This document shows, one piece after another, positions 25,386 through 25,733 of a stretch of DNA of 64,000 nucleotides. The notes under the pieces were generated by a model. The model did no database searches and was not told the origin of the DNA. It worked only from the letters and a program-made list of their open reading frames with translations. The stretch comes from Escherichia phage vB_EcoM_PTE-Eco15: the sequence record PQ352352.2; one strand, written 5' to 3'. Made by a program: the position numbers and the translations under genes. The first letter of the stretch is position 1; the number at the start of each line of letters is the position of its first letter.

Positions 25386-25733
25386 ATGAATTTTAATTAT
25401 TACCCTATTCTGTTAGAAAAAGACGAGAAACAGCCAAAATGGCAAGGTCCTCAGTTTATTAAAGGTGTCTATCAATTAGTAGTTCCTAAAGACAAGATTT
25501 ATAGTAGCTGTTTCACTGAATCCGCTTGCAGTATTTTCGGTAATAGTTCTCCGTATTGGAATTTTGACATAAAGCTGGATAGAAATATCGATATTTGGTT
25601 GAAAGCTATGGATATTGGTAATATCACGTTTGATGAGAATAATTATCATATTATTGGTCGCTTTTCCAAACGCGGTAAAGAATTATATTTCACACCTGAA
25701 ATTGAGAGAAAATTTGATGCTAAACCGTATTGA
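25386..25733 (+). CDS. hypothetical protein inserted between frd and td
   Basis: 115-aa ORF with weak RBS; no recognisable motif. Confidence 0.5.
   Translation: MNFNYYPILLEKDEKQPKWQGPQFIKGVYQLVVPKDKIYSSCFTESACSIFGNSSPYWNFDIKLDRNIDIWLKAMDIGNITFDENNYHIIGRFSKRGKELYFTPEIERKFDAKPY

Follow-up and report, generated by a model that had tools for sequence, protein, structure and literature searches.

The genes for dihydrofolate reductase (frd) and thymidylate synthase (td) of phage T4 were reportedly described as overlapping genes by Purohit and Mathews in 1984. The T4 genome record agrees, and agrees with what the initial annotation of the DNA studied here had stated: the frd stop and td start share a 4-nt ATGA and no ORF lies between them (NC_000866, frd 145109-145690, td ends 145112). 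T4 td has no Shine-Dalgarno-like AAGGT and relies on the ATGA overlap. In T2 and T6, by comparison, a 348-nt gene sits between frd and td, as it does in RB3, RB18, AR1 and hundreds of field isolates. Indels in T4-like phages have been proposed to be mediated by promoter-stem-loop cassettes, PeSL and PmSL (Arbiol et al., 2010, PMC2839356; Comeau et al., 2014, PMC4122927), of which PmSL combines a TGCTT Mot box with a -10 box (PMC4122927). Our search of the literature on phrog_1928, on frd/td, on frd in Tequatrovirus and on hyperplastic regions returned no mention of the ORF found between frd and td, the papers on PST/T4 and on T4-related genomes providing general context. Hundreds of genomes already have the protein annotated as hypothetical, and an existing PHROG family includes it.

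Organization of the frd-td locus

The window, by which we mean the whole stretch of 64,000 nucleotides of Escherichia phage vB_EcoM_PTE-Eco15 that was analyzed (PQ352352.2), is a segment of a Tequatrovirus (T4-like) genome. The features of the frd-td locus within it are as follows.

24785..25366, + strand: frd (dihydrofolate reductase), 193 aa; from the ORF list
25360..25368, + strand: direct repeat copy 1, TAAATGAAA, across the frd stop codon; from reading the sequence
25363-25371, + strand: 2-codon mini-ORF ATGAAATAA, its ATG taken from within repeat copy 1
25386..25733, + strand: 115-aa gene, phrog_1928 (gene A of the frd-td interval), ATG start; from the ORF list
25738..25769, + strand: 32-nt promoter-like block, TCAGCTTCATAAAATGTATTATAATTTATATA; from an alignment of six Tequatrovirus sequences
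25752-25762, + strand: TGTATTATAAT, part of the 32-nt block; contains a perfect TATAAT at 25757-25762
25769..25773, + strand: Shine-Dalgarno-like AAGGT, 5 nt ahead of the td ATG; from reading the sequence
25776..25784, + strand: direct repeat copy 2, TAAATGAAA, across the td start codon; copy 1 lies 416 bp away
25779..26330, + strand: td exon 1; a listed ORF whose end is an in-frame stop in the intron, not the splice site
26459..27196, + strand: I-TevI-type homing endonuclease ORF, 245 aa, in the td intron; same position as T4 I-TevI
27341..27655, + strand: td exon 2 region; the ORF C-terminus resembles the Td C-termini of related phages

The gap between frd and td (25367-25778) is exactly 412 nt, so that the initial annotation was correct in setting the two genes 412 bp apart with a 115-aa ORF in the gap. 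The ORF is flanked by a spacer of 19 nt after frd and by a promoter-like spacer of 45 nt before td, and a weak Shine-Dalgarno-like GGCGG is found at -9 to -5 of its start. T4 and the window have the same frd and td genes and nearly identical flanks next to the junction (Frd protein 98.4% and frd DNA 96.0% identical; 58 of the first 60 nt of td). They differ in that T4, which couples frd to td through ATGA, lacks a gene between the two as well as a Shine-Dalgarno sequence and a promoter-like block for td, whereas the window has all three.

Several additional features of this region were noted. Over td exon 1 as a whole, DNA identity to T4 is 84.6%, and it falls to 38/60 around nucleotides 180-240 of the exon; to judge by this and by the higher value for frd, a recombination mosaic boundary lies within td exon 1 and not at the indel. 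Over 24000-28500 Rfam gave no match at gathering score, not even for the td group I intron. This intron is clearly there, as is its I-TevI ORF, and it is probably the presence of the ORF within it that disrupts the match to the model. Upstream, an 81-aa ORF (phrog_3183, unknown function; window 24540-24785) lies between frd.1 and frd and is ATGA-coupled to the frd start. It is present in T2 and T6, and at that position T4 has a 71-nt non-coding gap. Since T4 is without both this ORF and the 115-aa ORF, it is stripped on both sides of frd.

The 115-aa ORF belongs to a conserved family

The 115-aa protein matched the phrog_1928 HMM (PHROGs v4) with an E-value of 3.1e-36, its residues 4-111 aligning to profile positions 2-125 of 126. 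By tblastn it was found in 563 phage records, in 362 of them at >=90% identity and in 201 at <60%. The 362 frd-td records (~70%), which include T2, T6, RB3 and RB18, encode a protein that is 93-100% identical to that of the window. In T2 (BBF63391), T6 (BBF63653), AR1 (ar1_242), RB3, RB18 and Lutter (F10A_0240) the phrog_1928 gene is equal to it in length and position as well, and we found no material difference between the window and its T2/T6-type relatives: the window has the common allele. The diverged homologues (26-66% identity) are of similar length. When 1.84 billion cluster representatives were searched exhaustively with HMMER, 19 clusters were returned, of which 18 were related, all of 95-119 aa; the remaining one, an 838-aa TPR protein, was rejected as spurious on reading. 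A word-indexed protein search gave three matches. Residues Q16, W19, G27, G91, K95 and G97 are invariant in the family, and the C-terminus carries a GRFxKxG motif.

Across seven alleles dN/dS was 0.01-0.14, with dS up to 0.99. The window and T2 ORFs are separated by 16 synonymous changes and a single non-synonymous one, the window and Mosigvirus AlbertHofmann ORFs by 32 synonymous and 10 non-synonymous changes. Because dN/dS is this low and homologues of similar length extend down to 26% identity, the ORF can be regarded as a real gene under purifying selection and as more than a chance reading frame. The gene is real and widespread, it has kept its position, and it is absent from T4. In our overall reading, to which we give a probability of about 70%, the ORF would be genuinely translated, a small phrog_1928 gene of the early or middle class and a long-standing occupant of the frd-td interval.

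The statement in the initial annotation that the protein has no recognizable motif held up. Pfam and NCBIfam gave no match at E <=10, PADLOC gave 0 families at the same threshold, and the only assignment was to phrog_1928, a family of unknown function. Across 21 family members, Pfam had no match in common, and a profile search of PDB sequences returned only noise (e.g., dynein, E 0.016). Two records (pSe_SNUABM_01 and SF2-1) label the protein "putative glucose-1-phosphate adenylyltransferase," and we discarded this label, which no search result backs.

A different label, "putative homing endonuclease," appears in the records of the BASEL phages KarlGJung, AlbertHofmann and others (e.g., MZ501089 bas37_0070), which raises the question of whether the ORF is a free-standing homing endonuclease or some other selfish mobile gene. 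Presence/absence polymorphism of the ORF within the genus would fit such an origin, as would the genuine homing endonucleases nearby (I-TevI, an HNH ORF in nrdA and a GIY-YIG ORF after nrdB). However, the protein contains no GIY-YIG, HNH, LAGLIDADG, PD-(D/E)xK or NUMOD domain in Pfam/NCBIfam at E <=10, the neighboring true endonucleases do match, and we consider a homing or selfish gene highly improbable. The BASEL label is backed by no search and we treat it as a mis-annotation.

In the window nrdA (28186-31354) is divided into two ORFs that encode an N-terminal 477 aa (28186-29619) and a C-terminal 329 aa (30365-31354), the split being made near the active-site CCEIAIPT region by an HNH/I-HmuI-NUMOD-type endonuclease ORF (29665-30375). 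The Pfam RNR barrel domain is correspondingly shared between the halves, at positions 1-221 and 219-523. Of 469 matching phage records, 34 have the same arrangement (fPS-90, FL33 and vB_EcoM_112 among them), annotated there as "homing endonuclease" with two RNR alpha genes. It resembles the mobE "genes-in-pieces" RNR of Aeh1. Just downstream of nrdB there is a free-standing GIY-YIG endonuclease-like ORF of 144 aa with a GTG start (32588-33022; Pfam GIY-YIG, E 4.8e-6), whose size and position fit denA (endonuclease II) of T4-type phages, by RB69 gene order.

Three junction alleles in Tequatrovirus

The state of the junction in the genus was surveyed with a 598-nt T4 junction probe. From the 514 matching records, 60 evenly spaced rows were taken; two were partial, td-only records that were left out, and 58 junctions were scored.

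Insert of ~416 bp (115-aa ORF): 44/58 junctions (e.g., T2, AR1, RB10, PP01)
Insert of ~206 bp: 10/58 junctions (e.g., Sf21, fPS-90)
Uninterrupted junction: 4/58 (two T4 records, G2133, JEP6)

The ~206-bp allele, ~17% of the sampled Tequatrovirus junctions, encodes a 68-aa protein (phrog_9550, MSNKLKVKDVPNAMALFICRQ...; positions 898-1104 of the Sf21 locus, L013). In Sf21 its gene is ATGA-coupled to frd on one side and to td on the other, where it overlaps the td start. We considered whether it might be a truncated form of the 115-aa ORF and rejected this, the two proteins being unrelated.

These counts bear directly on the initial annotation, which had taken a tightly coupled frd-td unit as the norm and the ORF as an accessory gene inserted into it. 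The norm does not stand: the T4-type overlap is rare, at four of the 58 sampled junctions, two of which are T4 itself. The accessory character of the gene does stand, as it is dispensable in the laboratory, given that T4 lacks it; its description as an insertion does not, since most of the genus carries the ORF, T2 and T6 among them. The initial annotation had further named the presence of the ORF in T4 as one observation that would count against it. T4 has no such ORF at this position, and with T2 and T6 carrying it, T4 by itself was too narrow a comparison.

The same interval in other genera

Comparison of the junction across T4-like genomes also went against the insertion proposed in the initial annotation, as several further genera of the Tevenvirinae have orthologues between frd and td. 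The order frd, phrog_1928 homologue, td was found in the Kanagawavirus phages PEi20 and Entb_45, in Moonvirus Merlin, in the Klebsiella T4-like phage Mexia, and in two metagenomic Logan contigs (L009 and L010), in which A shares 63 and 66% identity with the ORF of the window. All 15 of the IMG/VR loci recovered with the family profile were ordered Frd-A-(A')-(B)-Td, and in every carrier locus examined phrog_1928 lies directly between frd and td.

These loci differ from the window in gene content and in coupling. In PEi20 (ORF-253/252), Entb_45 (025/024/023), Merlin (260/259), L009 and L010, where A is 33-66% identical to the window protein and occupies the same frd-to-td slot, there are two or three genes, coupled to frd and td by ATGA or other overlaps, in contrast to the single copy and non-overlapping spacers of the window. 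At most other-genus loci A is followed by a second small gene, A', which is a paralogue of A (hhalign 98.9%, E 3e-17) and itself matches phrog_1928 (E 1.5e-37). A third small gene, B (68 aa, phrog_9550), is present in L009 and Entb_45, and with 81 and 68% identity, respectively, to the 68-aa protein of Sf21 it is orthologous to it. The gene sets of the other genera and the orthology of B therefore identify the interval as an A-A'-B array.

Where Td identity is 78, 80, 85 and 88%, that of A is 33, 37, 44.5 and 63%, so that divergence of A tracks divergence of Td, as vertical descent predicts. We propose that A would be a long-standing resident of the frd-td interval in T-even-type phages rather than a new insertion. 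Tequatroviruses have A alone (most isolates, as well as the window, T2 and T6), B alone (the Sf21 type) or neither gene (the T4 type). On the gene content of these loci, differential loss from an A-A'-B array would best account for the B-only allele.

Loss or insertion at the T4 junction

The T4 junction is the window sequence minus 416 bp between the two TAAATGAAA repeats. A single copy of the repeat, TATAAATGAAAC, is found at the fused junction of T4 and of RB69 (Mosigvirus, the sister genus), which has an empty junction identical in sequence to that of T4. Both repeats are conserved in the deeply diverged AlbertHofmann allele as well. Deletion of the 416 bp between the 9-bp repeats would fuse the frd stop to the td start as in T4, and we think it probable that the T4 state arose by such a loss, the direction being read from the sequence comparisons. 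A history in which the ancestor of Tequatrovirus and Mosigvirus was empty and the gene was later re-acquired takes an equal number of steps, and ATGAAATAA after frd may be what is left of an earlier td start, a reading that would favor insertion. Import of the empty junction into T4 together with an RB69-like td was also considered and was rejected, as td exon 1 of T4 shares 77.7% identity with that of RB69 and is closer, at the 84.6% given above, to that of the window.

The opposite history is that of a recent accessory cassette, in which the ATGA overlap of T4 and RB69 was ancestral, a block comprising the ORF and the promoter was inserted at TAAATGAAA with duplication of the 9 bp, and the block then spread by recombination. 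The empty junction shared by T4 and RB69, the 9-bp direct repeats around the 416-bp segment and the vestigial ATGAAATAA after frd can all be read in this way, a Mosigvirus has demonstrably acquired the frd+ORF module, and the window ORF is without the ATGA coupling to frd found in other genera. Against this, orthologues occupy the same slot in all other genera examined and in 15/15 of the IMG/VR loci, divergence of the A protein scales with that of Td, and the B-only allele best fits differential loss from the A-A'-B array. Moreover, no donor of >66% identity was found among the 1.84 billion cluster representatives, and a transposase, inverted repeats and an endonuclease are all absent. The alleles differ by dS of up to ~1, and therefore any insertion would be ancient and no feature of this genome. 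We consequently regard a cassette insertion, recent or ancient, as unlikely and continue to favor loss in T4; whichever the direction, the indel goes back a long way and does not set this particular genome apart.

Mosigvirus AlbertHofmann (L015, 94-1745) is an inter-genus mosaic. Its Frd is 87% identical to that of the window and 59% to that of RB69, its ORF is 93% identical to that of the window, and its Td is 97.8% identical to that of RB69. The breakpoint lies in the ORF-td spacer, at the place where the 32-nt promoter-like block is absent, and the frd stop is shifted, so that Frd is longer by 11 residues and overlaps the ORF start. From these identities, the copy of A evidently arrived by recombination, together with a Tequatrovirus-like frd.

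A promoter-like block upstream of td

The promoter-like element that the initial annotation had placed just before td is present: TGTATTATAAT, with its perfect TATAAT. The 45-nt spacer that contains it is nearly invariant among the six aligned sequences (the window, Lutter, KarlGJung, T2, T6 and ECML-123-2), despite dS of 0.03-0.3 at synonymous sites in the same six, and the 32-nt block (25738-25769) is absent from the Mosigvirus AlbertHofmann allele as one clean indel. Middle (MotA-dependent) promoters of T4 have a Mot box, (a/t)(a/t)(a/t)TGCTTtA, ~12 bp upstream of TAnnnT. In the window a Mot-box-like AGCTTCA is found at 25740-25746, within ATT(C/T)AGCTTCA at 25736-25746, in which A replaces the T before GCTT. 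The spacing from this box is 10 nt to TATAAT and 12 nt to TAATTT. A promoter is annotated at this spacer in the record of phage Lutter. A sigma-70 scan had as its best hit a 9/12 match, TTGATT-18-TATTAT, at 25730-25759, with no enrichment over shuffled background. Judged by consensus the block is an unconvincing promoter; a td-proximal middle promoter is a plausible candidate.

The block resembles the PeSL/PmSL cassettes in being a short, promoter-like, discrete 32-nt unit at the edge of an indel. It differs from them in that the window has no accompanying stem-loop or terminator (a terminator/stem-loop scan of 24300-26400 returned 0 sites), in its imperfect Mot-box match (AGCTTCA), and in that the ends of the indel are the 9-bp TAAATGAAA repeats and not the promoter block. 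As the combination that defines these mobile regulatory cassettes, a promoter with an adjacent stem-loop at the indel border, was not found, we do not assign the block to them.

Predicted fold and possible roles of the 115-aa protein

The 115-aa protein has a mass of 13.7 kDa and a pI of 7.7, most members of the family having a pI of 8-9. AF2, run with a 21-sequence alignment, gave a model with pLDDT 90.9 and pTM 0.84, in which DSSP assigned the elements E6-12, E27-34, E62-64, H68-77, (E80-82), E86-96 and E99-104. The predicted fold is a five-stranded OB-like barrel of the order β1-β2-β3-α-β4-β5, with the helix between β3 and β4. OB-fold domains (S1, RPA, SSB, Teb1, Cdc13, HIN and the RecO N-terminal domain) led both structural searches. 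OB folds usually bind their ligands at the β1-β2 loop or the β4-β5 hairpin, and in the model the conserved residues Q16, W19, Y29, R92, F93, K95 and F102 lie in or beside these two elements. We tentatively suggest, from the model, that the protein may bind single-stranded nucleic acid, or else a partner protein, and that it may be non-essential, devoid of enzymatic activity and co-expressed with the genes for dTMP synthesis.

A role in host takeover or anti-defense is a less likely possibility. Here the protein would act by protein-protein binding, for example as an inhibitor of a nucleotide-depleting or other immunity factor, and its location would reflect shared early/middle expression. The protein is small, phage-restricted, dispensable in the laboratory (T4) and strongly conserved in wild isolates, its locus is multi-allelic, like other accessory hotspots of T-even phages, and OB-like barrels mediate protein binding too, all of which such a role would accommodate. 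Conversely, its dN/dS of ~0.03 and fixed synteny across genera contrast with anti-defense genes, which are usually fast-evolving and patchy, and it matched no known family. The null result with PADLOC is uninformative in this respect, because its library consists of defense and not counter-defense proteins. More speculative still, and in our estimation improbable, is the proposal that phrog_1928 (A and A') is an unrecognized OB-like family tied to the thymidylate cycle, whose members would coordinate dTMP synthesis by binding dihydrofolate reductase, thymidylate synthase or the mRNA for these enzymes, or would neutralize a host defense that depletes nucleotides. Were this the case, it would explain why A and A' have stayed translationally coupled between frd and td across the Tevenvirinae, and T4 would be a natural knockout that hid the function.

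Implications

To the existing record of a hypothetical protein this analysis adds the three-allele locus, the paralogy of A and A', the picture of differential loss, the 9-bp repeat signature and the OB-like model. Many conserved genes of T-even phages lack an assigned function, the 115-aa gene among them, and its strong purifying selection and fixed position make it a reasonable, if non-urgent, target for knockout, for which T4 is a ready natural null and T2 and T6 are carriers. More generally, T4 is unrepresentative at frd-td: the textbook overlap of the two genes is rare and probably derived, and most T-even phages, T2 and T6 included, have one or more small conserved genes between frd and td.
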